Shown here: positions 29,565-48,652 of the stretch, one piece after another
Layout: every line of letters starts with the position of its first letter
How positions within the stretch are numbered: position 1 is the first letter of the stretch
Source: Candidatus Heimdallarchaeum aukensis
Lineage (GTDB): Archaea > Asgardarchaeota > Heimdallarchaeia > Heimdallarchaeales > Heimdallarchaeaceae
Length of the DNA stretch: 64,000 nt
Reading direction: 5' to 3'
Assembly (NCBI GenBank): GCA_021513695.1
Contig: CP084166.1
Location: forward strand, 1,728,001-1,792,000
The notes under the pieces: model-generated
Databases searched by the model: none
Told to the model about the DNA's origin: nothing
The model's input: only the letters and a program-made list of their open reading frames with translations
Position numbers and translations under genes: made by a program

Positions 29565-30398
29565 TCACTCATATTTTCTTTTAATTGCTGACAATACTCT
29601 TTCTTGCCAGTCAACTAGCTTTTCAGCGAGCTCTTTATGTAAATCGGGGTGTAAGGGGGCATCAGCTTTAAGTTTATCTATTTTTTTCAACCAACTATTA
29701 ATTTCATACAACATTGGGCTCATGCCCACGCTCGTTTCTACTTCATCACGCAACTCTTCAAGGTACTTTAGAACAGAGCTAGATATGGATTGTGGACTTA
29801 TCATTTGAGATATGTGTTTAAACTTATTCTTTATTGCGTCCATTGCAACTTGTGCATCAGCAGCAGCAGTAGAGATAACAGGTTCTTCTGCTATTCCGGG
29901 TGAGGTATATTCTGTACTAGTTTCTTTTTGGGGAGCATGTTCTTTTATCTCAAAATCATTGTTAAGTACTTCAGAACTAGATAAAGTAGTTGCAGGGGTA
30001 GGCTCTGAAGGAACTGGTTTAGGTTCAATCTTTTTAGAAATTTCTTGTTTTGATGCAACCTCAACTAATTTTTTATCAAGATTTGCAGTTAATTGCTCAA
30101 TCTTTGTTTCTAAAATTCCTAAAATATTTCGAATTGAAGGTATATCTGTAAGATATTGTAAATTTTCCAAGGAACCATTTGCTAATTTATCACTAACAAG
30201 AGAAAAAGTTTCGATCTTAGTTTTTATGTCATCAACTTTTGCATTCAATTCATTTAAATTAAATCCTGCTATTTGTTTCTCAAAATTTGATAATTGTTCA
30301 GAAAAATGACTTATTGTATTTTGAATTGCGTTTACAGATTCTGCTAGGGTGTTGATTGAATTAACTAATTCTACAAGTTTATTTTCAACATCACTCAT
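29565..30398 (-). CDS. hypothetical coiled-coil protein
   Basis: N-terminal ~120 aa heptad repeats, central P/S/T-rich linker, C-terminal helical region. Confidence 0.35.
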   Translation of the reverse strand: MSDVENKLVELVNSINTLAESVNAIQNTISHFSEQLSNFEKQIAGFNLNELNAKVDDIKTKIETFSLVSDKLANGSLENLQYLTDIPSIRNILGILETKIEQLTANLDKKLVEVASKQEISKKIEPKPVPSEPTPATTLSSSEVLNNDFEIKEHAPQKETSTEYTSPGIAEEPVISTAAADAQVAMDAIKNKFKHISQMISPQSISSSVLKYLEELRDEVETSVGMSPMLYEINSWLKKIDKLKADAPLHPDLHKELAEKLVDWQERVLSAIKRKYE

Positions 30399-30967: not shown

Positions 30968-31438
30968 ATGAGCTTGGATGAAGAAGAATTTTTTGCAAGA
31001 TTAGCTATTGAAGCAAATGAATTAAAACGTGAGCTTCCTACTTTTAAACCAGTTGATGGAGATATGACTCATTTACGTGGATTTATTTTTGGAACAGGAC
31101 TTTATGAAGGAGGAGTATTTGTTTTAGACATAATCATCCCTAGAGAATACCCATTTAAACCACCAAAAGTAGAATGTTTAACAAAAATTTTTCATCCTAA
31201 CTTCTTTAATAGAAGAATTTGTGTAGGGGTTTTAGGCGCAGATTGGACACCAGCAAATAACCTTGTTGATGTAATTGAGAGCATACGATTTTTGCTTGGT
31301 GAACCAAATCCTGACGATCCTTTAAATTCCACGGCAGCCAACTTAATGAAAAGAGATCTTAAAGCATTTGAACAAAAAGCCAGAGAATACGTGGAAAAAT
31401 ACGCATCATTTAGTCAAATACAAGAATATGGTTTATAA
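30968..31438 (+). CDS. Ubiquitin-conjugating enzyme E2 (UBC fold)
   Basis: HPN motif and active-site Cys: KIFHPNFFNRRICVGVL; downstream W..A..L..V..SI..LL.EPNPDDPLN pattern typical of UBC domain. Confidence 0.8.
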   Translation: MSLDEEEFFARLAIEANELKRELPTFKPVDGDMTHLRGFIFGTGLYEGGVFVLDIIIPREYPFKPPKVECLTKIFHPNFFNRRICVGVLGADWTPANNLVDVIESIRFLLGEPNPDDPLNSTAANLMKRDLKAFEQKAREYVEKYASFSQIQEYGL

Positions 31439-31736: not shown

Positions 31737-32345
31737 TTGAACCTTGATCAAGTAAAAGGAGTAATTGAGATTGCAGGAGTGAAGTTTAGTGCAGCTCAAT
31801 TAATAGAAAGTTTAGTAGATCAAGGTTTTTCAGTTTCTTTTATTAACGGGAATTTACGTGTTGGGCAAAGATTCTTAAAACCAGAAGTTTTTATTGACGA
31901 AGAATATAAAACGTGCCCAATTATTGATATATGTAAAAAGTATGATGAAATTATTAAGGATGCAAAAAGAAAAATTCAATTTCCCCAATATATCAACAAT
32001 AAGGAGTTAATTGAAAAATCTGCATGTAGGTCTGAGAACTATAAGCAAGGTACAATAATAAAAGATGAAATCTATGAGGATAATATTAACCTAGACGATG
32101 AAATTTTTGATTATCCACCGTTAAAGAAATCTTCATTTGGTTTTTCAGACAAAGAACAGGAAGCATCTCCTCTTACTTATAAGCAAGGTAAGACATTCAC
32201 TGAACCAAGAGAAATGATTGGAGTAGGAACTTTAACTTTTGGCCGTCCTTTATCATCAAATGGAACAACCTGCTCTAAATGTGGAGCAATTGTGAACGAA
32301 GGTTGGCAATATTGTGGAAAATGTGGAAGTTATATAGAAAGATAA
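31737..32345 (+). CDS. hypothetical protein with C-terminal zinc ribbon
   Basis: C-terminus CSKCGAIVNEGWQYCGKCGSY (CxxC-x9-CxxC). Confidence 0.3.
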   Translation: MNLDQVKGVIEIAGVKFSAAQLIESLVDQGFSVSFINGNLRVGQRFLKPEVFIDEEYKTCPIIDICKKYDEIIKDAKRKIQFPQYINNKELIEKSACRSENYKQGTIIKDEIYEDNINLDDEIFDYPPLKKSSFGFSDKEQEASPLTYKQGKTFTEPREMIGVGTLTFGRPLSSNGTTCSKCGAIVNEGWQYCGKCGSYIER

Positions 32346-32357
32346 GATCTATCTTAA

Positions 32358-33653
32358 TTATTCTGCATCCACACAACCTTCAGGAGTAATGGCGAAGATA
32401 GCCTCTGATTCTGGTAAAACAGGAGAGTCATAGACTCGAATGATTCTCTTTTCCCCCTTGCTTTTTCTTAGATAAAACCTTGTTGTAGCCCAGTGACCCA
32501 TAATGTTTCCTCCTATTGCTTGAGTTGGATCACCAAAAAAAGCTCCAGGATTTGATTGTACTTGATTCGTTATAACCACTGCAACATTATATGTGTCAGC
32601 TATTCTTCCTAGAATTCCTAAGTGGTAGTTCATAGTTTGCTGTCTTTCTGCTAATGTTCCTCTTCCTGCATATTCTGCTCGAAAGTGTGCTGTTGCAGAG
32701 TCAACAACCACAAGTCCATATTCATCTTTTTGGTTGAAAAACAGCTCTAACAGTCTTTCTGATAAAGTCATTTGATGGTCAGAATTATATGCCCTTGCAT
32801 AACTAATATCCTTTAACACATCTTCGAAAGATTTTTTCCATCCTAATTCTCTTTGAAAACGTTCATGGATTGCTTTTATTCTACTTGGCGAGAAGGTTCC
32901 TTCTGTATCAATAAACACCGCTTTCTTTCCAGCTCCTCCTAATTCAACTGGTAGTTGTACAGTAACGCAAAGTTGGTGACAAAGTTGAGATTTTCCTGAC
33001 CTAAATGGCCCAAAAAGTTCTATGGTTTCACCAAGTCTTACACCAGAAACCCCGAGTTCATCAATCGTAGTTAATGCATCAATGTTTTTTACACCATACG
33101 TAAAACTAAGAATAGATTTTTGCTTTTCTAAGACATCCAAAGCGTTAACAAACTCTATTCCTCCACGAAGTTCTTTTAACGCCTCTTTATATTTTTGTGC
33201 TGCAACAGCAGTTATACCATATTTTTCTTCTAATTCTCTAATTGGAGTTGTTTCTATTAAGTAGACATTAAGTCCTTTTTCTCTTAATGTTTCAGCAGTT
33301 TTTCCACCAATACCTGGTATGTCCTCTAAGTTTATTTCTTCTTTAAAATACTTATATTTAGGAACCATTTTCTTGATAGCTTCACGAATCTTTTTAGCTG
33401 TAGCTCTTTTTACACCCATAGATTGAAGTTCAAGAAGACTTGTTGTCATTATCTGATCGACATTTGTTATATTATTTTCTTCAAGAATCTTTGCTGTCTT
33501 ATCTCCAAGTCCAGGGATATCTTTTAGTGAAATACTTTCTATATCCACAAAAGATTCATCATTTTCTTTTTTTTCGTCAATAGATTCCTCATAGAACTCT
33601 TCAGCTTCCTTTACAAGATCTTCATTTTCATCTTTCTTACTCATATTTTGCAC
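32358..33653 (-). CDS. radA: DNA repair and recombination protein RadA (Rad51/RecA family) with extended N-terminus
   Basis: Walker A GPFRSGKSQLCHQL, Walker B VVVDS; N-terminal acidic tail plus two HhH-containing segments (IPGLGDKTAKIL..., IPGIGGKTAETL...). Confidence 0.85.
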   Translation of the reverse strand: MQNMSKKDENEDLVKEAEEFYEESIDEKKENDESFVDIESISLKDIPGLGDKTAKILEENNITNVDQIMTTSLLELQSMGVKRATAKKIREAIKKMVPKYKYFKEEINLEDIPGIGGKTAETLREKGLNVYLIETTPIRELEEKYGITAVAAQKYKEALKELRGGIEFVNALDVLEKQKSILSFTYGVKNIDALTTIDELGVSGVRLGETIELFGPFRSGKSQLCHQLCVTVQLPVELGGAGKKAVFIDTEGTFSPSRIKAIHERFQRELGWKKSFEDVLKDISYARAYNSDHQMTLSERLLELFFNQKDEYGLVVVDSATAHFRAEYAGRGTLAERQQTMNYHLGILGRIADTYNVAVVITNQVQSNPGAFFGDPTQAIGGNIMGHWATTRFYLRKSKGEKRIIRVYDSPVLPESEAIFAITPEGCVDAE

Positions 33654-33728: not shown

Positions 33729-34235
33729 TTAATAGTCTACTCCCTTTCTTGCAGAAATTCCTTGCTGAAAGGGGTGCGCAATTTCTTTAATTACTAAGTC
33801 CAGATCTACGTCCTTGAAATCCCTAGATGCTAACCTCCCAGTAATAATTATTTTTTCATTTATTTTCTCAATTAATGAATAAATATCTTCAATTTGTATA
33901 AGATTATAATATAACGCAAATCCTAACTCATCGAGAATTAACACATCACTTTCTGTATCTTTAATAGAATCTTTTACAATAGATAGTTGCTCTTTAATGA
34001 ATTCTCTAAACTCGTTTTCATTTTTCTGTGGAATAAAGAACGTTTCTTTTCCTATAGTGAACCAATTAACATTAAATTTCTCTGTAATATATTTACACTC
34101 CCCACACTCTTTTCCTGTTTTCAAGAATTGAATTACTGTTACCTTTTTATTATCTATCAGGGATTTAATTATTTTACCAACAGCATTTGTTGTCTTTCCT
34201 CTACCTGTTCCCCTGATAATTTCGATTTGCACCAT
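33729..34235 (-). CDS. cobO: ATP:cob(I)alamin adenosyltransferase (CobO/CobA/BtuR family)
   Basis: IEIIRGTGRGKTTNAVGKIIKSLIDNKKVTVIQFLKTG...GE matches hVYTGnGKGKTTAA.G...RA.G.G..V.VVQF.KG...GE; LILDELGFAL and IITGR motifs. Confidence 0.75.
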   Translation of the reverse strand: MVQIEIIRGTGRGKTTNAVGKIIKSLIDNKKVTVIQFLKTGKECGECKYITEKFNVNWFTIGKETFFIPQKNENEFREFIKEQLSIVKDSIKDTESDVLILDELGFALYYNLIQIEDIYSLIEKINEKIIITGRLASRDFKDVDLDLVIKEIAHPFQQGISARKGVDY

Positions 34236-34426
34236 AAAAAAAGAAATTAAATGAATATATATTAAGATTATCAGATGATTTATTTTTCACATATTGATAA
34301 AACAAGTATCCCCATTTCAAATAAAATGAAAATAAATTTGATTCTATTATTTATTAACCCAAAACTTTTTTACAGATTTTTAACAAACTTGTACCATAAA
34401 GTAGCTTCATTCAAAATAATATAAAA

Positions 34427-35437
34427 GTGGTTACCGTGTCAGAAATAGTACAACAAATAATTGATTCTGGTGCAATTTATCTAGTTAATCCAGCTTTAAT
34501 TCAAACAACAGTAGATGACTTTTTAGATAAATATGGACATTTATTAGATGTAATTGGTTTATATGCAAAGGGGAGTAATGGTTTCACTTTTTTCCCCAGT
34601 AATAATGCCCCAAAACATCCAAATTTAAGTATTTATTTCCATTCCTTCTGCACTATTGCAGATAATATGGGAATAAAAGTTGATGCCTTTAGTCATGTAC
34701 ATCGAGATAGTTTTTTGGTTCAAAATGCAGATTTCAGGGAACAAAGTAGTGATGGAGAGAAAATTGATTTGTTCGCATGTCCAAGTCATCCTTACATTAA
34801 TCAGTATAACTCTGCCATTGTTTCAGAAATCGTACAATATCCAGTTAATAAACTAGTTTTGGATAATATTTTATTTGCAAATTTAAAAGCATGTTTCTGC
34901 GATAGATGTAGAAGGTTATTTGCACAAAAATGGAATATTGAACGAGATTTCAGTTATGATTTCTTAAAATCAAGAGATTTTTATGATAATTGGGTTGAGT
35001 TTAGAACAACACTAATAGAAAATACACTAAGAGAGATTACAGATTCAATGAAACAGATCAAGAATGTTGATTTGGCATTTGTCATCAAGGCAGATAAAGA
35101 AACTAGCTATTTAACAGGAACAGAGGAGAATTTTGGACAGAATATAGCAAATATGCTTAAAATTACAAATAACATAATAACCCATGTTAATCCTTGGACA
35201 GAGATTCCCTCAGCTGGCAGTGAAGACTTCCAAAATCTTGTTAATGCCCTTTCACCACTTTTAGAACTATCAAAAACAGGAGTTGAACATTCATTGCTTT
35301 TCTGGGGTGTTAATGACAAAGAAAAATTAGATCTTGTTTTAAAGTTAAGCGAAGATTTGAACCCAAACAATATCTACATCCAAGATATAAAGCCAACAGA
35401 CTTCACAAAGTTAAGGCAAATTAATTTAGGTTTTTAA
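34427..35437 (+). CDS. hypothetical protein
   Basis: 336 aa ORF; Cys pair CFCDRCRR; first gene of a tightly packed three-gene unit. Confidence 0.3.
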   Translation: MVTVSEIVQQIIDSGAIYLVNPALIQTTVDDFLDKYGHLLDVIGLYAKGSNGFTFFPSNNAPKHPNLSIYFHSFCTIADNMGIKVDAFSHVHRDSFLVQNADFREQSSDGEKIDLFACPSHPYINQYNSAIVSEIVQYPVNKLVLDNILFANLKACFCDRCRRLFAQKWNIERDFSYDFLKSRDFYDNWVEFRTTLIENTLREITDSMKQIKNVDLAFVIKADKETSYLTGTEENFGQNIANMLKITNNIITHVNPWTEIPSAGSEDFQNLVNALSPLLELSKTGVEHSLLFWGVNDKEKLDLVLKLSEDLNPNNIYIQDIKPTDFTKLRQINLGF

Positions 35438-35438
35438 A

Positions 35439-36881
35439 ATGAAGGGGATCGAAGACGCAGTCGAAGAAATAAAACAAATGTTCTGGGGAGTTTTAAAGGG
35501 AAGTTACAGCCCTGAGGAAGAAGAAGATGTAAAAGTAAGACTTATTACTGCTTTATCAAGTTTAACTGCATTTGCAAAATCTTTTTTGCCAGAAGAACAA
35601 CAGCAAGAATATGAAGAACAATTTTCTCAAGCACGTAACATTTTACAGCGGTTTGATTCAGCTGGCCCTTGGTTCAGAGAGCTTCCAGAGATGATTGATG
35701 CAGTGTACAATATTCTTACCTATGCAAATGTATTGCAGATAGAAGTACAGCGATATAAAGACATGAATAATGATGCGCTACAATACTATAACATAAAACT
35801 TGAAAAAATAGAAATGAAGTTAAATTCACTTGAAAATGAACTTAGAAAAATAAAAACTTATGTTAAAGAGAGGATTACCAAAGAAGATTTGGTTAAAGAA
35901 AGCGAAATAATTGAAATTGAAGAAAAAGAAGAAAAACTTCTTCAAACTCAAGAGATTTTAGGCGAAGAGACTAAACTTGAAACTGTTGAAAGAGCAGAAG
36001 ACTTAGAAGAAGCACTTGAATTAGTAAAAGAAGAACCAGAGCTGTTACAGGTTGATGAAGCCGTTGAGATGGAAGAACCAGAAACAGTAGATGAAACTGT
36101 AATGTCTAAATTAGAGGATATTACAACTGAAGATATTAGTAGCATACCTAAAGATATTTCTAAAGAAGACATAAATTTAATTGAAGGAATCGAACTAGCC
36201 TCAAAACTTGAAGAAGATCACATCCCTATAAAGGAGAGTTTAGAAACAGAAAGTGAAAGTCTGCAAAAACTTGCAAATTTACTTCAAGCTCTTGATCCAG
36301 GCGACGATCTAGTTCTTTCACCATTAACTCAAAAACTATTAGAGCTAAGTGGTGATGAAGGAAAAGCTGAGATAGCAGCAGAAAAAAAGCAAGAATTTCA
36401 AATTGATGTGCAAGAGCAAACTGGCACTGAAGTAGCGAAAGAAGCTGAAATGAAAGATGCTAGTGTTCCTTCGTCAGTTGATAGATTAAGTGACATTTTG
36501 GCTTCACCTGACAAAATACAAGATGCAGCAACATTCATTTCAGCAATCCGTGACACTATTGATCAAGTAGCAAAACAAACTGATGATGATTCAACATCTA
36601 CCCCCTTAACTAAAATAATTGAAGCAGAAACTGGTCAAACAGATGAAACACCTTTAAGCATTGCTGATATTGAGAATATTATTAGCCATTTAGAAAACAA
36701 AAGAGAAAACGCAATAGAACGGGTAAAGAAACTCGAAAAAATAATTGCTACAGAAAAAATGGATGAAGCAGAATGGCAAGATTTAATGATAAGTGCACAA
36801 CAACACCTCCTACGAATAGAAGATACTCTTGATGGTTACAAAAGGGTATTAAACAAATTAAGAATGCAATTAGAAAAATGA
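35439..36881 (+). CDS. acidic coiled-coil protein (hypothetical)
   Basis: 480 aa, E/D-rich, long predicted helical/coiled-coil segments; starts 1 nt after upstream stop. Confidence 0.35.
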   Translation: MKGIEDAVEEIKQMFWGVLKGSYSPEEEEDVKVRLITALSSLTAFAKSFLPEEQQQEYEEQFSQARNILQRFDSAGPWFRELPEMIDAVYNILTYANVLQIEVQRYKDMNNDALQYYNIKLEKIEMKLNSLENELRKIKTYVKERITKEDLVKESEIIEIEEKEEKLLQTQEILGEETKLETVERAEDLEEALELVKEEPELLQVDEAVEMEEPETVDETVMSKLEDITTEDISSIPKDISKEDINLIEGIELASKLEEDHIPIKESLETESESLQKLANLLQALDPGDDLVLSPLTQKLLELSGDEGKAEIAAEKKQEFQIDVQEQTGTEVAKEAEMKDASVPSSVDRLSDILASPDKIQDAATFISAIRDTIDQVAKQTDDDSTSTPLTKIIEAETGQTDETPLSIADIENIISHLENKRENAIERVKKLEKIIATEKMDEAEWQDLMISAQQHLLRIEDTLDGYKRVLNKLRMQLEK

Positions 36882-37303
36882 GAAAAATGGTCAATTTTGT
36901 TCATTTTTATTTTGGAGATGCTGATGAAACCTTTTATACAGGAATAGGAACCGCAATTAGAGCTTTAGGACATGGAAAAAAGGTTCAAGTTATTTTAACA
37001 GATAAAAAATTCTATTGGGTAGAAAAAATCTCTACAGAAACAGATGATTTTAGAATTTTTAAGCTGAAAACTAAGAACGACATTAATTTCTTGAAGGAAA
37101 TTATAAACTCCTCAGAACAAGAGTTAATATTGATTTCAGATATCGATCTTCTTATTCAAAATAATTGGATTACAGCAGAGCATTTGAAAGATATTGTGTT
37201 AAAACTAAAAGAAAAGAAGGAAGTAATTATTACAAGTATGTCTTTCTATAAATCGATAGCAAATATCGCAGACTATTGCTCTCATTTTTCAAAAGAGGGA
37301 TAA
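36878..37303 (+). CDS. CobO/BtuR-like protein with degenerate P-loop (predicted pseudo-enzyme)
   Basis: VHFYFGDADETFYTGIGTAIRALGHGKKVQVILT parallels CobO hVYTGnGKGKTTAA.G.A.RA.GHG..V.V.QF but GKGKT is replaced by DADETF; LILISDIDLL ~ LVILDEI; overlaps upstream stop by 4 nt. Confidence 0.4.
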   Translation: MRKMVNFVHFYFGDADETFYTGIGTAIRALGHGKKVQVILTDKKFYWVEKISTETDDFRIFKLKTKNDINFLKEIINSSEQELILISDIDLLIQNNWITAEHLKDIVLKLKEKKEVIITSMSFYKSIANIADYCSHFSKEG

Positions 37304-37486
37304 TAAGCAAGTCTAATTTTACTTTTTACAACAAAATAATCTTTAACAAAAAAGCAATTTTTTGATTTTTCTCTTCTACGATTATTTTCGTATATAACAA
37401 GGAGCTTATTATCCACTTTATTCTTCCTATTTCGTGTTTTTTAGAATCTTAGATAGTTTTTTATATTTTCATCAAAAAGAATAGCC

Positions 37487-37921
37487 ATGCAATTCAAGAT
37501 CGATTCTTCTAAAGGACTGCATTTTGTAAAATTAGAACCTGGAGAAGACATTCTCCCTGAACTTAAGAGATATTGTCAACAACACAATATAAAATCTGGT
37601 TTTATTCAAGGAATAGGCGCAGTAAAAGAGGCGACTCTTGGTTATTTTGATCTAGAAACAAAACAATATCTAAGAAATAATATGAAAATCAATGCTGAAA
37701 TGTTAAGTTGCATAGGTAATATTTCCAAGAACAAAGAAACAAGTGAATATATTATTCATTGTCATATCATTTTAGGAGATAATGAATTTAGAGTCATTGG
37801 TGGACATCTCTTCGAAAACACAATAATATCAGTTACAGGAGAATTCATTATTACAGAATCAAAAGAAGAAATTTATCGTTCTCTTGATGAACAATTCAAT
37901 CTTTCACTTCTTGAACTATAA
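37487..37921 (+). CDS. PPC/DUF296 domain protein
   Basis: LEPGEDILPELKRYCQQHNIKSGFIQGIGAVKEATLGYFD...IHCHIILGD..FRVIGGHL matches DUF296 pattern. Confidence 0.6.
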   Translation: MQFKIDSSKGLHFVKLEPGEDILPELKRYCQQHNIKSGFIQGIGAVKEATLGYFDLETKQYLRNNMKINAEMLSCIGNISKNKETSEYIIHCHIILGDNEFRVIGGHLFENTIISVTGEFIITESKEEIYRSLDEQFNLSLLEL

Positions 37922-39865: not shown

Positions 39866-40492
39866 ATGGGATTTTGGTCTGACTGGTTGGATGCTATCGC
39901 ACGATGGATTTCTAACAATAATTGGAATCAACTACCGCAATCTGTGCTATTTATCACACTCACTAGTATTTCTATTTCAGCGTTTTCTGCAATAATTACG
40001 AAACTGTTAGTGGATACAGAATCACTTAACGAAGACATGCAAAAAATAAACAAATGGAATCAAAAAAGAAAAATGGCAATGGAAAGAGCAGATAAAAAAT
40101 TATGGCTAAGTGTTAAACGAGAAGAAGATGCAATAAAGCGTTTACAACAGAGTATGATGATGAAAAGAATGAAGCCAATGTTAGTTACATTTATTCCATT
40201 TATGGTTATCTTTGCAATCTTAAGAAGAGCTTTTAATGGACATTATTATGCTTGGATACCATTCAATATGGGTAGTTTTCCATGGATAGGTAAGACACCA
40301 TGGAGCGAACAAGTAACTTATGATGGACATGTTTATTCAAAGATTAGCTTTACATTCTGGTATTTCCTATCAAGCTTCGCATTTGGTTCTCTAATATCAC
40401 GTATATTAGGAACAAACCCCCAAGGAGCAGTAAGCACAGATAGTAAGAAGAAATCAAAAACATCCAAAAAAACGGTTAAAAAAAATAAATAA
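39866..40492 (+). CDS. DUF106 family membrane protein (archaeal Oxa1/EMC3/Get1-like insertase homolog)
   Basis: TM1, coiled-coil MQKINKWNQKRKMAMERADKK...QQSMMMKRMKPM, then TM2/TM3 (VTFIPFMVIFAIL); matches DUF106 topology and M/K/Q-rich motif. Confidence 0.5.
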   Translation: MGFWSDWLDAIARWISNNNWNQLPQSVLFITLTSISISAFSAIITKLLVDTESLNEDMQKINKWNQKRKMAMERADKKLWLSVKREEDAIKRLQQSMMMKRMKPMLVTFIPFMVIFAILRRAFNGHYYAWIPFNMGSFPWIGKTPWSEQVTYDGHVYSKISFTFWYFLSSFAFGSLISRILGTNPQGAVSTDSKKKSKTSKKTVKKNK

Positions 40493-42986: not shown

Positions 42987-43601
42987 TTATTGACTGATTT
43001 TTGAAAGAATTATATTTTTAAATATTTTATATGAAACATCGAAGGTGTGAAAAGGCCATAATCTATCTTCTGTTATTATTATTCTTTCACTTAATGCAAT
43101 GGCATTTCCGATTCCTAAACCAATTTCTCTTTTATCTCGACTTATGAAATTATCCCAAACTGCTAAATCTTTATCTTCTTTTGTTTTTTCTCGATGTTTT
43201 CCAGAAACCTTAAACCTATCAGGATTTTTCACCCGTAGGAATCGTGTTTTTTGGCTTGCATGAAAACCTAAAACTGTTACATTTTCTCGTCCAAACCTTT
43301 TTTTTGTGTATTCAATTTCAGAAGGAGATTTTACTCCATTCAAAATCAAAACATTGGAATCACAATAAATGTTCTTTTCAGCATCTAAAATCGTTCTAGC
43401 AAAAGCCACTGGGTCTCTTGATAAAAGATCTTTTATTACCATCGTTGTATTTTTATGAGTAACTTCTAGTTTTCTTCTCTTAAGTTCGTGGTAAACAGCG
43501 TGACCTGTTTCAACCATTGGTATATTTTCCTCTTCACGAAGCTTATGTCCGTGTGATGACTTACCGCTTAGTTGAAATCCCACTAAAATAAATACCTTCA
43601 T
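42987..43601 (-). CDS. P-loop nucleotide kinase-like protein (UPF0200/dephospho-CoA-kinase-like)
   Basis: N-terminal MKVFILVGFQLSGKSSHG P-loop; ~200 aa. Confidence 0.4.
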   Translation of the reverse strand: MKVFILVGFQLSGKSSHGHKLREEENIPMVETGHAVYHELKRRKLEVTHKNTTMVIKDLLSRDPVAFARTILDAEKNIYCDSNVLILNGVKSPSEIEYTKKRFGRENVTVLGFHASQKTRFLRVKNPDRFKVSGKHREKTKEDKDLAVWDNFISRDKREIGLGIGNAIALSERIIITEDRLWPFHTFDVSYKIFKNIILSKISQ

Positions 43602-43748: not shown

Positions 43749-43859
43749 GCCAGGATACTCAAGCGGTAAGAGGTATGCCTGGAGAGTAATAATTCCAAGG
43801 TTTACCCATTAAGCATATGCCTTTATGGCTCCGGGGTTCAAATCCCCGTCCTGGCTCCA
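43749..43859 (+). tRNA. tRNA-Ser (anticodon GGA) with 27-nt intron in anticodon loop, long variable arm, encoded CCA
   Basis: Acceptor GCCAGGA/TCCTGGC (7 bp), T-arm CGGGG-TTCAAAT-CCCCG, anticodon stem TATGC/GCATA flanking CTGGAG[intron 43785-43811]A giving loop CUGGAGA, variable arm GCC-TTTAT-GGC; discriminator U then CCA. Confidence 0.6.
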
Positions 43860-43899: not shown

Positions 43900-44622
43900 C
43901 TATATAACAAACTTAAACGATTTCTGATAAGATCTAAGAATATCTATTGTTTCAATAGTTGTTGACTTTGCTACAATTTCTGGCAGTTGCCCTGTTATCC
44001 AATTTAATGTGTCTTCAAGATTTTTTCTCATTTCAGGATCAGTTTTTTTGAATATATCTACAAGGGTATCAAAATCTACTTTTTCAGAGGAAGAAAAGAC
44101 ATATATCCACTGTTTCAATGTTTCTACTCTTTGTGAAGGATAAATGAAACTCAAAGAATTATCACTTTTAGAATAACTAACTAGTCCTTTGATTTTTACT
44201 GGCATTAAAGAAATGAATTTTGAACCTAGCAGAGATCTAAAGAGTAAACTTAGTATCTGCTCTTTTGAGGGGATACGTAAGCGAGAAGAAACAAATTCAT
44301 AATTAATTAATGTTGTTCCGAAGTAAAAATACTGATTATTTTGATTAATACTCAAAGCACAGAAATCATCTAGTTTAGAATGTAAATCACCTAATTCTAC
44401 TTGAAACTTAACACTAACGAAATCAATATCATCAATTACAATCTTGTTCAAGAAATTATCTAGCTCTCCTTCAATAATCAAATCATCACATGAAGCAGAA
44501 AAACGACGGTCAAAAATCCTTCTTATTACCACTTTTTCTCCTTCGAGCGCATCGTATATTCTCTCTAAAGCAGAATTAGATAATTTTTTCTGATTCATAC
44601 GTATCATTATTGTTTTTACCAT
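43900..44622 (-). CDS. hypothetical protein
   Basis: 240-aa ORF directly downstream of polB on the same strand (13-nt gap); no motif recognised. Confidence 0.3.
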   Translation of the reverse strand: MVKTIMIRMNQKKLSNSALERIYDALEGEKVVIRRIFDRRFSASCDDLIIEGELDNFLNKIVIDDIDFVSVKFQVELGDLHSKLDDFCALSINQNNQYFYFGTTLINYEFVSSRLRIPSKEQILSLLFRSLLGSKFISLMPVKIKGLVSYSKSDNSLSFIYPSQRVETLKQWIYVFSSSEKVDFDTLVDIFKKTDPEMRKNLEDTLNWITGQLPEIVAKSTTIETIDILRSYQKSFKFVI

Positions 44623-44635
44623 ACCATTTCACCGT

Positions 44636-47600
44636 TTAGCTAAAGAATGTGTCTAAACTTTTTATTCCCTCAACTTCTTTCCATGAGATCCCAAGTGTAT
44701 CCAATAGTTGTCCGAATGTTGATTGTACTAACTCTTTCATTTTTTTCACATCTACATCAGATTTAGTTGCAAGTTCAATAGGTTTGACGGAACACTCATC
44801 ACTTAAACTAATCTTATCATTTAGTAGACCGGAAGGTACTTTTATCTTAAAGGGTTTTGTTTTAACGAATGTTATAGTTGAGCCTACGGCTATATCACTA
44901 TTAGGATTTTTAATTAATAACTGTATTGCTGCTTGTAATGGTTGTGTCCAGCTCTCATAATCTTTTAATCTTTTGGAAAGAGTAACTGAAATAGCTAGGT
45001 CCTCAAGCTTAAACGATCTTTCATCGAGCCTTCTCATTGTTCGCTGGACAATACTGATTATTTTCTCTTTTGCAGTCTCCAATTCTTCAGGAGAATTAAC
45101 ATCAGAAAGAATTTTTAAAACTCTATCAAAAGCACGTTTGATTAGAGAAGGAGTGTTCTTTTTCTTGCCCATTAGGCCTTTTACAATTGGTGTTCCTTTT
45201 GTTGTTATTCCAAAGTAATTTTTCTTTCGATCTGAAAGGCAACAATATCTAAAAACGTAGTCAATCCCTAATTCAATTTGAAAATTATCTAAACTCCATT
45301 TCTTTAGTTCTTCAATATCACTTGATTTTGGTTGGTAGACAAATATGCTATCTGTATCACCATATAACACAGGAATTCCCAAATCTTTTTCACAGTGCTC
45401 TTTCGTTTTTGAAATTGCTTCTCTAGCCAAAGCAGTGGTCGATTCTGCCACTGGAGGACAATATAAAGCAAAGTTATCTGAACCTAAAACACCATATGAA
45501 TTGTGAACAACAATGCCAGTATCGCTTACAAACCAACCGTTTGATGTTTGAATGTCGTATACTGGTTCACTTGAAGAAGCGCGGATGTCTCTAATTCGAG
45601 TGGGAATTGTTCCATTATAGGATACAAAATCTTGCTTTTTACTATTGTATAGTTTACCAGACTGTTCAACAACTTGATAAATAGTTTGAATCACTTTACC
45701 ATTTTCAATCCGTTCGTCTCTACGAATATTTACAAATCTACCTGTTGCATTCGCAACCATAACAAGATCAGTAGCCAATTGTTTACTTACAGTTGTATAT
45801 TGAATATTATTACCTGTCATAGCTCTTTCATTATCTTTGAAGCATTCTTCTATGAAAATCTCGGCTCTGGATTTATTTAACAAATGAAGAGGAATTTTCC
45901 TATTGCTCATGTACTTTCCACAAAGCTGTTCTAGAATCCTAGACCAAATTTTAGAGTTTATTACAAATCCTTTTTCACTAGCATTAAAATTAAGATTCAT
46001 GCGAGATAAAACTTCATTAATCTTTTTCCATTTTTCTGGACTCTTATCTTGATTTTGAGAAATAAATATATGATTTTTCTGAATATTCCCTTCAGCGATA
46101 ACCCAAGCAATCAATCGAATGAGATCGTCATCAATTGATATTCTGGCATTATACCATAAACTTTCATCATCTCCAAGTGCAACTTTTATCTCTTCTGAAA
46201 GATTTTTTCTAATGGTTTCTCTTTCATACTCTTTTAGCTCAATCCATCTTGCTTTACATAATTTCAATTTTTTACTTTGACAGAATCGCTCTTTAATAGT
46301 ATGTATGCTTGGTTTGTCAACTGGTTGATTTATTTTGTTAGAAAAATTTTCAAAATCAGCTCTTGAGAATCCTATATACAACTCTTGATCATGAATTAAA
46401 TCTGGAATAAAGAGAGTTTCAGGAGGATTTTGAGTCAATGGAATATTTTGAACAACTAAAATTTTATCATTAATCTTCAATTCCCCAGCATATTTCTCAT
46501 CAACTTGAAAATTTGATAGTAGTACAGGAACTCTATGATTAGCTGTTAGTCTAATAGCTCTCCCATCCTCAAGTATAATTTTTATTAAGTCAGCAGGTGA
46601 CCTTTCCCAGTAACCTTCTATGTCCACAAATATAGGAGAACCAAAAGTTTCATCTTCTTCTCGAGAGATTGATAATATCTGATAATCTTGCCAACAGTCT
46701 GCGAGTTCTCCAATTGGGAGTTTAGTTACTATTTTTGTCTGCTTGTCCCTTACAATTACTTCTGCATCATAGGGCAAACAAGCATTTATGAGAACTTTCA
46801 ATGATGCTTGCATTACATTGCTTAGAACCCTTAGTGCTTTATCGACAGTCTGATCCTTTGCTTTTTCTTTAAACCAGTAGACCCTGATATCACGGATAAA
46901 GCCAATCAACATGGACATTATCCCAACTTTTTTTGTACATACCCAGTGATTTGTTTCTGGTATTTTATTTAGTTCCTTACATTCTTTATGCTTACACCTA
47001 ATAGTTTCATATGAAAGATTACGTGTCTTGATTATAGAGGGATAAAGACTGGCATAATCCAGGACATAAACATCCCACCATACTCCAGCTTTTGGTTGAA
47101 TAACAATGGCGCCTTGGTATTTCTTTCCTTTTATAATCGCCTCAGTAGATACCTCTCCTTTGGCTCGTAGTATGTCTTCTGGTAAAGGAATAAGATAGTT
47201 CCTTTTTCTGTGTTCATAATAGAACCAATTTTGTATCCAAATACTTACACTTGAACGGATAAAATCATCGATAGGCATCTTCGTCATTCTTGAAAGCATA
47301 AAGATAAGTTCCATCACTTGATTTTGACTAAAAGTAGTAAGTTCAAGAGTGATTACAGCGTCTTGGGCGTTATATTCTATAAGTTCCTCTAAACTTAGAT
47401 CCCAAATATCTTTTTCATGTTCAACCTTATGTTTGCCTAAGAGAGTTGAACCTAACTCATCTAAAGTTACCCTGTCATATTTTGCTCCAAAAGCATAAAT
47501 TCTCATCGATGCTTGCCTGAAAAAACGATAAAGATCAAGATGCAATCCATATTCAAGATAAGTATCATTCTGAGTTGAAGTTGTAGTTATAATTGGATTT

Positions 47601-48652
47601 TTCATGTCATTTATGCCCAAGTTTTTTGCACGTTTGTTTAAGTAAGGTAAGTCAAAATTATCTCCATTAAAAGTTATAATTATAGGATATTCATTTATTT
47701 TCTTAAAAACAGCTTCAATCAATTCTTTTTCATTTTCAAATTCAATAACTTTTATTTTCTCATCTTTTTTCTGAATAGACGTTTTTTCTTCATTTAAAAC
47801 ATATATTGACACATCACCACTTGTGTCGGCAAAGCCCACGGAGATAATTTTGTCATTAGCTACCTTGGGATCAGGAATCCTTCCTTTATCACTTTTTACT
47901 TCAATATCAAGAGAACAACGGGGAATATCAGGAATTGGTGAAAAAAATGTAGGAAAATAAGATAAAACCAATTCATGTATTTCACTAGGTTGACTAGAGA
48001 AAATTTTTGTTATTTCGTCCTTAATGGAAGGATCGATTTCTGGTTCTACTTGAATTATTTTTCCGTCCTTAATTTCATATAGCAATCCTGGAACAAGTAA
48101 ATTATCGTAGATATAATTGAGATGGTAACGGATATTAGCTTCATAGGAGGGCTTGATAAATTCTCTGAAGCTGTTTGATTTTCCTCCTATAGCTAGAGGA
48201 TTAGTACCATAAACTTTTGTAAGAGAAATAGAACTATCAGTTAACAAATTGTATTTTTCTACAGTTTCACAACCCACAAATTCCTTATTACCTTGTAGGA
48301 TACTTTCTACTTCACTAATAGTTTTTGTAGTCAACAAATAGGGTTTATGTTCTGTTTTGTCGTAAAAACGGTAAACTTTTCCATCTTCAGGATTATAAAA
48401 TTTCATGTATGCTTGCTCTTTTTCACCATCATAATTTACAGAAATAAGATAAGATGCAGGAAGATCAGAATGGACAACTAAAATATTAGAATTATCATCA
48501 AGGAAAGTGATGTTACTACTATCTGAATCGCTGGAAGACGATTCTTTAACTTCAACCCCTTTGATTTCTGAAACCTTTGTAGGAGAAGAGGATTTTTTAT
48601 TTCTCTCTATATTGGGGCGAGACAAAAATTTCTCTAAATTCATTTGACCCAT
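44636..48652 (-). CDS. polB: Family B DNA polymerase (intein-containing)
   Basis: Exo II FNGDNFDLPYL, Exo III YNAQDAVITLEL, Pol motif A DYASLYPSI, motif B split KVLINA|intein|SYGVLGS, motif C LYGDTDSIFV. Confidence 0.9.
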   Translation of the reverse strand: MGQMNLEKFLSRPNIERNKKSSSPTKVSEIKGVEVKESSSSDSDSSNITFLDDNSNILVVHSDLPASYLISVNYDGEKEQAYMKFYNPEDGKVYRFYDKTEHKPYLLTTKTISEVESILQGNKEFVGCETVEKYNLLTDSSISLTKVYGTNPLAIGGKSNSFREFIKPSYEANIRYHLNYIYDNLLVPGLLYEIKDGKIIQVEPEIDPSIKDEITKIFSSQPSEIHELVLSYFPTFFSPIPDIPRCSLDIEVKSDKGRIPDPKVANDKIISVGFADTSGDVSIYVLNEEKTSIQKKDEKIKVIEFENEKELIEAVFKKINEYPIIITFNGDNFDLPYLNKRAKNLGINDMKNPIITTTSTQNDTYLEYGLHLDLYRFFRQASMRIYAFGAKYDRVTLDELGSTLLGKHKVEHEKDIWDLSLEELIEYNAQDAVITLELTTFSQNQVMELIFMLSRMTKMPIDDFIRSSVSIWIQNWFYYEHRKRNYLIPLPEDILRAKGEVSTEAIIKGKKYQGAIVIQPKAGVWWDVYVLDYASLYPSIIKTRNLSYETIRCKHKECKELNKIPETNHWVCTKKVGIMSMLIGFIRDIRVYWFKEKAKDQTVDKALRVLSNVMQASLKVLINACLPYDAEVIVRDKQTKIVTKLPIGELADCWQDYQILSISREEDETFGSPIFVDIEGYWERSPADLIKIILEDGRAIRLTANHRVPVLLSNFQVDEKYAGELKINDKILVVQNIPLTQNPPETLFIPDLIHDQELYIGFSRADFENFSNKINQPVDKPSIHTIKERFCQSKKLKLCKARWIELKEYERETIRKNLSEEIKVALGDDESLWYNARISIDDDLIRLIAWVIAEGNIQKNHIFISQNQDKSPEKWKKINEVLSRMNLNFNASEKGFVINSKIWSRILEQLCGKYMSNRKIPLHLLNKSRAEIFIEECFKDNERAMTGNNIQYTTVSKQLATDLVMVANATGRFVNIRRDERIENGKVIQTIYQVVEQSGKLYNSKKQDFVSYNGTIPTRIRDIRASSSEPVYDIQTSNGWFVSDTGIVVHNSYGVLGSDNFALYCPPVAESTTALAREAISKTKEHCEKDLGIPVLYGDTDSIFVYQPKSSDIEELKKWSLDNFQIELGIDYVFRYCCLSDRKKNYFGITTKGTPIVKGLMGKKKNTPSLIKRAFDRVLKILSDVNSPEELETAKEKIISIVQRTMRRLDERSFKLEDLAISVTLSKRLKDYESWTQPLQAAIQLLIKNPNSDIAVGSTITFVKTKPFKIKVPSGLLNDKISLSDECSVKPIELATKSDVDVKKMKELVQSTFGQLLDTLGISWKEVEGIKSLDTFFS
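45500..46780 (-). other. Intein (427 aa) with LAGLIDADG-type homing endonuclease region, inserted in PolB motif B
   Basis: Begins CLPYDAEV (Cys1) after KVLINA, block B LTANH, LAGLIDADG-like LIRLIAWVIAEGN, ends IVVHN followed by +1 Ser (SYGVLGS). Confidence 0.8.

Follow-up and report, generated by a model that had tools for sequence, protein, structure and literature searches.

A CobA-related protein without the catalytic motifs of CobA, and its conserved gene neighbours in Heimdallarchaeaceae

The stretch of DNA considered here, called the window below, comprises 64,000 nucleotides (nt) of the genome of Candidatus Heimdallarchaeum aukensis (contig CP084166.1), and all coordinates are window positions. 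It contains a run of three genes on one strand, which encode a protein of 336 amino acids (aa) modelled as a TIM barrel, a 480-aa acidic protein that we call the scaffold, and a 141-aa protein, here named CobA', which is related to the ATP:corrinoid adenosyltransferase CobA/CobO/BtuR and is the main subject of this report. A gene for a PCC (DUF296) domain protein follows the trio, and a canonical cobO/cobA gene precedes it (Table 1).

An original prediction, made from the letters of this region, had described the trio as a tight three-gene unit close to an intact cobO on the opposite strand. The open reading frame (ORF) map agrees with that layout, including the single nucleotide between the first two genes, and the cobO in question has all its motifs intact. 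The trio is indeed tight, but the prediction missed the PCC-domain gene, which constantly accompanies it as a fourth gene. The predicted 4-nt overlap between the scaffold stop and the CobA' start is present as ATGA; its exact extent is uncertain, however, because Met4 of CobA' (at 36887) is as plausible a start as the annotated one, and because orthologues start 3-6 residues ahead of the HFYYG strand, +4 to +26 nt past the upstream stop. Judged from the ORF positions, CobA' is tightly coupled to the scaffold gene whichever start is used. The spacer between cobO and the TIM-barrel gene presumably holds the promoters of both, and the oligo-T runs downstream of CobA' are a possible archaeal terminator between the trio and the PCC gene.

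Table 1. Positions of the genes and sequence elements at the CobA' locus
Feature	Position	Strand	Basis and remarks
Canonical cobO/cobA (168 aa)	33729-34235	-	PF02572, E=1.3e-37; neighbour, system membership not demonstrated
AT-rich spacer, 191 bp, between divergent cobO and TIM-barrel gene	34236-34426	.	ORF map
TIM-barrel gene (336 aa)	34427-35437	+	ORF map
Acidic scaffold gene (480 aa)	35439-36881	+	ORF map; 1-nt gap after TIM-barrel gene
CobA' gene (141 aa)	36878-37303	+	ORF map; ATGA overlap with scaffold stop, read in the sequence
P-loop remnant G13-D-A-D-E-T-F-Y20 in CobA'	36914-36937	+	Sequence and alignments
Oligo-T runs (T6, T5)	37358-37370	+	About 55 nt past CobA' stop; read by sequence
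PCC (DUF296) domain gene (144 aa)	37487-37921	+	PF03479, E=1.8e-32

CobA' matches the Pfam family PF02572 (CobA_CobO_BtuR) with an E-value of 1.2e-9 and a score of 39 bits, above the gathering cut-off of 25.7, so the predicted similarity to CobO and BtuR is not spurious. No second Pfam family, including Rad51, RecA and KaiC, is matched at E<=1. In a phmmer comparison with the sequences of the Protein Data Bank (PDB), residues 16-40 and 82-136 align to Salmonella CobA, in the same register as had been predicted; PDB structures of that enzyme are 1G5R and 4HUT. A profile built from two CobA' orthologues retrieves canonical CobAs at E-values of 1e-6 to 1e-4. The AlphaFold2 model, which used 22 family members, has a pLDDT of 93.3 and a pTM of 0.88, and its three-dimensional fold is that of CobA, with a large margin over recombinases (17.2 versus 13.3). 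CobA' thus descends from the CobA/CobO/BtuR adenosyltransferase and has kept its RecA-like alpha/beta core.

The same results bear on the possibility that CobA' is a RecA-fold mediator in the manner of Rad51 paralogues, acting in recombination or replication with RadA and the family-B DNA polymerase (PolB), whose genes lie in the same region, while the PCC protein supplies the contact with DNA. We consider this very unlikely. The only family found in the sequence is PF02572, the model favours CobA over recombinases, and at 141 aa the protein appears to be a minimal core with no segment to spare for DNA-binding loops. Furthermore, its partner is a sugar-hydrolase-like barrel, and in the window RadA and cobO are transcribed divergently from the trio and its PCC neighbour, while PolB is about 7 kb away.

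We aligned the CobA' family with Escherichia coli BtuR (NC_000913), the window CobO and canonical CobAs, and BtuR numbering is used for the motifs of the enzyme. The family retains strand 1 (h-H-F/Y-Y-x-G), the helix-1 residues G47, R51 and G54-H55, the E-h-h-h-T strand and the A-D-Y-V-S strand. The Walker A motif, G-x-G-K-G-K-T-T, has become G-D/N-R-x-x-A-F-x, with Ala or Thr in place of the lysine (K41) and Phe in place of the Mg-binding threonine (T42). In the window protein, residues 13-20 read G-D-A-D-E-T-F-Y where CobA has G-N-G-K-G-K-T-T, which bears out the predicted replacement of GKGKT by DADETF. Helix alpha1 of the model begins at residue 15, which aligns with BtuR residue 38; there is therefore no loop of P-loop length between strand 1 and helix 1.

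The P-loop was the only loss that the original prediction had named, but the losses extend well beyond it. Walker B (D127-E128) is represented by S87-D88 in the window and by A-N in most orthologues, the conserved Asp of CobA', D90, being two residues further on. The QF(I/L)KG...GE block is reduced to a shorter stretch without Q-F-x-K or G-E, and the segment of F91 and W93 is shortened, with no aromatic counterparts. TGR is replaced by T-S-M in the window and by T-S/G-E in orthologues, so that the arginine (R161) is gone. The N-terminal arm of CobA is also gone, and the protein ends just past ADYxS, without the C-terminal KHPF..G..AR.GIEY tail of about 25 residues. Against the cobA equivalog model TIGR00708 it scores 36.6 bits, where the cut-off is 167.75. 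By its sequence, then, CobA' has none of the functional marks of membership in CobA, and for this reason annotation as an adenosyltransferase should be avoided. We infer that it would be unable to bind ATP-Mg or to adenosylate corrinoids. The motif losses thereby support the idea, already put forward in the original prediction, of a RecA-fold adenosyltransferase that has turned into a non-catalytic subunit, in which the role as a subunit would be as set out below.

A word-indexed search with CobA' returned only the protein itself (100%, hypothetical protein) and a single orthologue, 71% identical. When 1.84 billion cluster representatives were searched exhaustively by HMMER with the CobA' profile, 44 matched; approximately the top 28 make up the family without a P-loop, with canonical CobAs appearing from about E 1e-6. 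In a motif census of the 45 proteins that the searches yielded, 28 were without GK[ST] and had lengths of 63-167 aa, while the 17 with GK[ST] were canonical CobAs of 151-206 aa in which the other motifs were present (the GKS motif of P0063 was identified by eye). P0063, the nearest P-loop-bearing sequence by N-terminal similarity, lies in a bacterial setting of ftsQAZ and chemotaxis genes and was set aside as an ordinary CobA.

Using the well-conserved 336-aa neighbour, we reached 30 related loci in species-representative genomes, nearly all of them labelled Heimdallarchaeota or Heimdallarchaeaceae. Walker A is missing in all 27 distinct CobA' sequences (the window and 26 from the loci), whereas G.G[KR]GKT[TS] is kept in 14 of 14 distinct sequences of co-resident canonical CobOs. 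The loss is therefore ancestral, rather than a local mutation or a sequencing error. In other words, orthologues with an intact GKGKT, which would have pointed to a local artefact, did not turn up: GK[ST] occurs in none of the 27 sequences and in none of the 28 cluster representatives.

We estimated the ratio of nonsynonymous to synonymous substitution rates (dN/dS) by the Nei-Gojobori method for 14 genome pairs, and obtained 0.17-0.34 for CobA', 0.02-0.12 for the TIM-barrel gene, 0.07-0.16 for the scaffold gene and 0.06-0.15 for the PCC gene. These values show purifying selection on CobA', 2-5-fold more relaxed than on the neighbouring genes. The data refute the view that the gene is a decaying pseudogene, a mis-called reading frame or a real cobO distorted by sequencing errors, for which nothing speaks apart from the missing motifs: the ORF is intact in 27 loci, which come from different samples, with a constant length of 136-145 aa, and is found in about 28 clusters as well, the fold is predicted with confidence, the family conserves GD(R)xxAF in place of the P-loop, and dN/dS is well below 1.

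In contrast to CobA', the window CobO is canonical, with GTGRGKTT, QFLK, LDE, TGR and HPF..ARKGVDY all intact. On sequence grounds it is a divergent archaeal subtype of CobA. It has a weak DUF2124 match (E=2e-4) and scores under the NCBIfam equivalog cut-offs; a pair of cysteines in its QFLKTGKxCGEC block is kept in 12 of 14 co-resident Heimdall CobOs. Only in the genus Heimdallarchaeum does the cobO gene sit directly next to the TIM-barrel gene, in divergent orientation; in other genera it is found beside RadA, about 7 kb upstream and past PolB and several unknown genes. A recent tandem duplication of the adjacent cobO was examined as the origin of CobA' and rejected, and that cobO is not its closest relative, because a hidden Markov model (HMM) of the CobA' family scores co-resident Heimdall CobOs at 2-26 bits (the window CobO at 15 bits) and canonical, mostly bacterial-type CobAs from elsewhere at 33-58 bits, a comparison biased by the fact that the canonical set had been pre-selected as best matches.

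These observations, together with what is left of the old active site, are relevant to a second alternative, namely that CobA' binds a small ligand in a remodelled pocket, for instance a corrinoid, which would make it a sensor or chaperone of B12, or a nucleotide bound in a non-canonical way, and serves as a ligand-sensing regulatory subunit. At the former pocket, G13-D14, F19, D90 and T119-S120 are still conserved, and they occupy the C-terminal ends of strands 1, 4 and 5, the site of the old active center. CobA' still has R51, G54-H55 and the ADYVS strand of CobA, and most genomes keep a canonical cobO no more than about 7 kb away. On the other side, the Walker A Lys and Thr, the Walker B Asp-Glu, the TGR arginine and the C-terminal tail have all gone, and so have the aromatic residues of the shortened F91/W93 segment, which reportedly position the corrin in Salmonella CobA. 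The neighbourhood of cobO looks like inherited synteny rather than an operon, because PolB and other genes intervene, and we saw no evidence in this analysis of a functional tie between CobA' and cobalamin metabolism. Overall, we regard a ligand-sensing CobA' as unlikely.

The 336-aa partner is modelled as a (beta/alpha)8 TIM barrel (pLDDT 89) similar to GHL10/PgaB; its score against Pfam GHL10 (PF02638) is 16.4, below the cut-off of 27.9, and a profile search against PDB sequences gave chance-level matches only. It has an invariant set of four cysteines (C118, C156, C158 and C161), and the invariant polar and aromatic residues K48, D146, K221, D223, H253, N255, W257 and W293 are at or just past predicted strand ends. 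Strand 7 is followed by no acidic residue, as is also the case in Cwp19 (PMC5765458). The second residue (147) of a D-D motif after strand 4 is the positional counterpart of Asp196, the candidate catalytic residue of Cwp19; it is Asp in 28 of 36 orthologues, Gly in 2, and Asn in the genus Heimdallarchaeum. Given Asn147, the barrel may be non-catalytic in the window genome.

The scaffold has a pI of 4.35 and a net charge of -59. It consists of a conserved N-domain (residues 1-135), a variable acidic linker (about 140-240), a conserved motif block (241-300) and a conserved C-domain (330-470). It had been predicted to be an acidic coiled-coil protein; acidic it is, but heptad-like periodicity is limited to two short segments, at about 108-155 and 406-438. 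We found no significant Pfam or PDB sequence match for it: a profile search of the PDB gave chance-level matches, and a Pfam scan of 16 orthologues gave scattered weak matches of coiled-coil type only. A profile search found 73 scaffold homologues, the named ones all from Heimdallarchaeaceae or Heimdallarchaeota and all called hypothetical. The PCC-domain protein scores 112.6 bits against PF03479 (cut-off 25); literature matches to 'DUF296' were spurious, actually referring to DUF2961. Among the four proteins we found no hydrophobic segment resembling a membrane span or a signal peptide, and no match to PADLOC defence profiles at E<=0.01.

The order TIM-barrel gene, scaffold gene, CobA' on one strand holds in all 27 loci with enough sequence, and in each of them CobA' directly follows the scaffold gene, as the predicted pairing of the two requires. 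The gaps are -4 to +8 nt between the first two genes and -4 to +26 nt between the second and third. Even the divergent CobA' variants P0060, P0061 and P0071 (140-167 aa, on four short contigs) are each preceded by an ORF that matches the C-terminal half of the scaffold, at E-values of 1e-79 to 1e-87. The PCC gene always adjoins the trio. In most genera it precedes the TIM-barrel gene by 60-170 nt and is divergent from PolB, while in the genus Heimdallarchaeum (the window and loci L001 and L007) it is 183 nt downstream of CobA'. Its adjacency thus survives rearrangement of the locus, which argues for functional linkage. The four-gene module is present on every contig recovered with enough sequence, from about 30 species-level genomes of Heimdallarchaeaceae; all its components are confined to this family and all are annotated as hypothetical.

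Taken together, we think it fairly probable that CobA' is a pseudo-enzyme, acting as a nucleotide-independent structural or adaptor subunit of this Heimdallarchaeaceae-specific module. The module would comprise the PCC-domain protein, a cytosolic barrel of glycoside hydrolase (GH) type, the large acidic scaffold and CobA', the last three being translationally coupled. CobA' and the scaffold would be produced in a constant ratio, and CobA' would bind the scaffold and, by way of it, be linked to the TIM-barrel protein; both the physical complex and the adaptor role are what we infer. The conserved residues around the old pocket would then form a new surface for binding a protein or a ligand. CobA forms a dimer, and CobA' possibly dimerises in the same way. 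As to the process served, the modelled fold of the partner points to the chemistry or binding of glycans in the cytosol, and the synteny with PolB, RadA and the PCC protein allows a nucleic-acid-related process as an alternative.

Several points weigh against the adaptor reading. No gene fusions were found. The former pocket is not uniformly conserved, since Arg15 of the family motif GDRxxAF is Ala in the window protein, and the ligand-sensing alternative is compatible with the sequence. The evolutionary rate of CobA' exceeds that of its neighbours 2-5-fold, a finding that fits an accessory role under loose constraint and equally well a marginal function. Finally, contact between the products is itself a prediction. 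The last two points favor a further alternative, in which CobA' is co-transcribed with the other genes and acts independently, the operon reflecting co-regulation and no physical complex. This we consider rather unlikely, for adjacency to the scaffold gene is strict across sequences that are 21-40% identical and survives rearrangement of the locus, and the spacing between the two genes is typical of stoichiometrically coupled partners. A bolder extension of the adaptor reading seems quite unlikely: that the module is an unrecognised cytosolic machine of pseudo-enzymes, made up of a dead CobA fold and a TIM barrel without its candidate catalytic Asp (at least in Heimdallarchaeum), organised by the acidic scaffold and a PCC trimer, with a regulatory or structural role in O-GlcNAc-like glycan signalling or in chromatin, replication or recombination, the last three entertained because the module is syntenic with PolB and RadA.

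The surrounding genes of the window have features of their own. RadA (32358-33653, minus strand; 431 aa, with Rad51 and helix-hairpin-helix (HhH) Pfam matches) carries an acidic N-terminal extension of about 40 residues, and its HhH-type matches are at residues 42-95 and 106-127; the orthologue in locus L030 has 405 aa. PolB (44636-48652, minus strand; 1338 aa) is split by an intein (PF14890, residues 646-1051). In other Heimdallarchaeaceae loci the orthologous polymerases fall into two size classes, of about 915-980 aa and about 1250-1350 aa, and the intein insertion is therefore polymorphic in the family. Two ORFs on the minus strand next to PolB, of 240 aa (43900-44622) and 204 aa (42987-43601), adjoin each other and have no Pfam match. 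A homologue of the first directly follows PolB in every related locus covering that side, and in other genera an unmatched gene of about 228 aa takes the position of the second, a correspondence that is positional only. Both may be genes associated with PolB that have gone unrecognised.

A ubiquitin-conjugating (E2) enzyme homologue (30968-31438, plus strand; PF00179, E=7.8e-33) is followed by a protein of 202 aa that has a zinc ribbon at its C-terminus (31737-32345, plus strand), and both genes are also upstream of RadA in H. endolithica (L007). From its sequence, the E2 locus is a component of the eukaryote-like ubiquitin system of Asgard archaea. Between a methyltransferase and ribosomal protein L34e lies a homologue of the EMC3/TMCO1-like (DUF106) membrane insertases (39866-40492, plus strand; PF01956, E=2.7e-24). 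An Rfam tRNA call of 108 nt (43749-43856, plus strand; 44.5 bits), which ARAGORN did not report, is probably an intron-containing archaeal tRNA. Lastly, the 277-aa ORF at 29565-30398 (minus strand) has weak Pfam matches of coiled-coil type and no convincing family; its sequence marks it as another lineage-specific helical protein.

To our knowledge, no role of the CobA/CobO fold has been described outside the enzymes of cobalamin metabolism, and we found no account of a CobA-derived pseudo-enzyme in the literature that could be searched, in line with what the original prediction had supposed. CobA' indicates that this fold can lose all of its catalytic elements and yet stay under selection within another system. 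There is also a practical consequence: annotation pipelines based on Pfam could mislabel CobA' genes as adenosyltransferases of cobalamin, and Asgard genomes would then seem richer in B12 metabolism than they are. The Heimdallarchaeaceae clade is described, in a passage of PMC8813620, as phylogenetically closest to eukaryotes. We found no link of the module to a eukaryotic signature system in this analysis, which limits its wider significance; as a set of hypothetical proteins, it provides a defined biochemical target for Asgard-specific cell biology.

CobA' shares ancestry and fold with CobA/CobO/BtuR, but it sits in a non-cobalamin operon and the catalytic motifs are gone. In concept it resembles the RecA-fold pseudo-ATPase subunits, such as the Rad51 paralogues XRCC2 and RAD51D, the Shu complex and Elp4/5/6, among which it would be an additional case. 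Those proteins derive from recombinases or KaiC-like ATPases, whereas CobA' derives from CobA and has no relation to them at the sequence level; unlike them, it has no evident ring or filament partner. The 336-aa barrel differs from its nearest likenesses, GHL10/Cwp19 and the C-terminal GH domain of PgaB, in being cytosolic, archaeal and without a signal peptide, in scoring under the GHL10 cut-off and in its Asn147. For the module as a whole, a possible analogue is human O-GlcNAcase, which combines a GH84 barrel, a stalk, a disordered region and a pseudo-acetyltransferase domain. Both would bring together a cytosolic sugar-hydrolase-type barrel, a helical or disordered acidic spacer and a dead domain from an unrelated enzyme family. 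The folds and families are different, and the parts of the module are separate polypeptides, so the likeness is one of analogy and does not imply homology.
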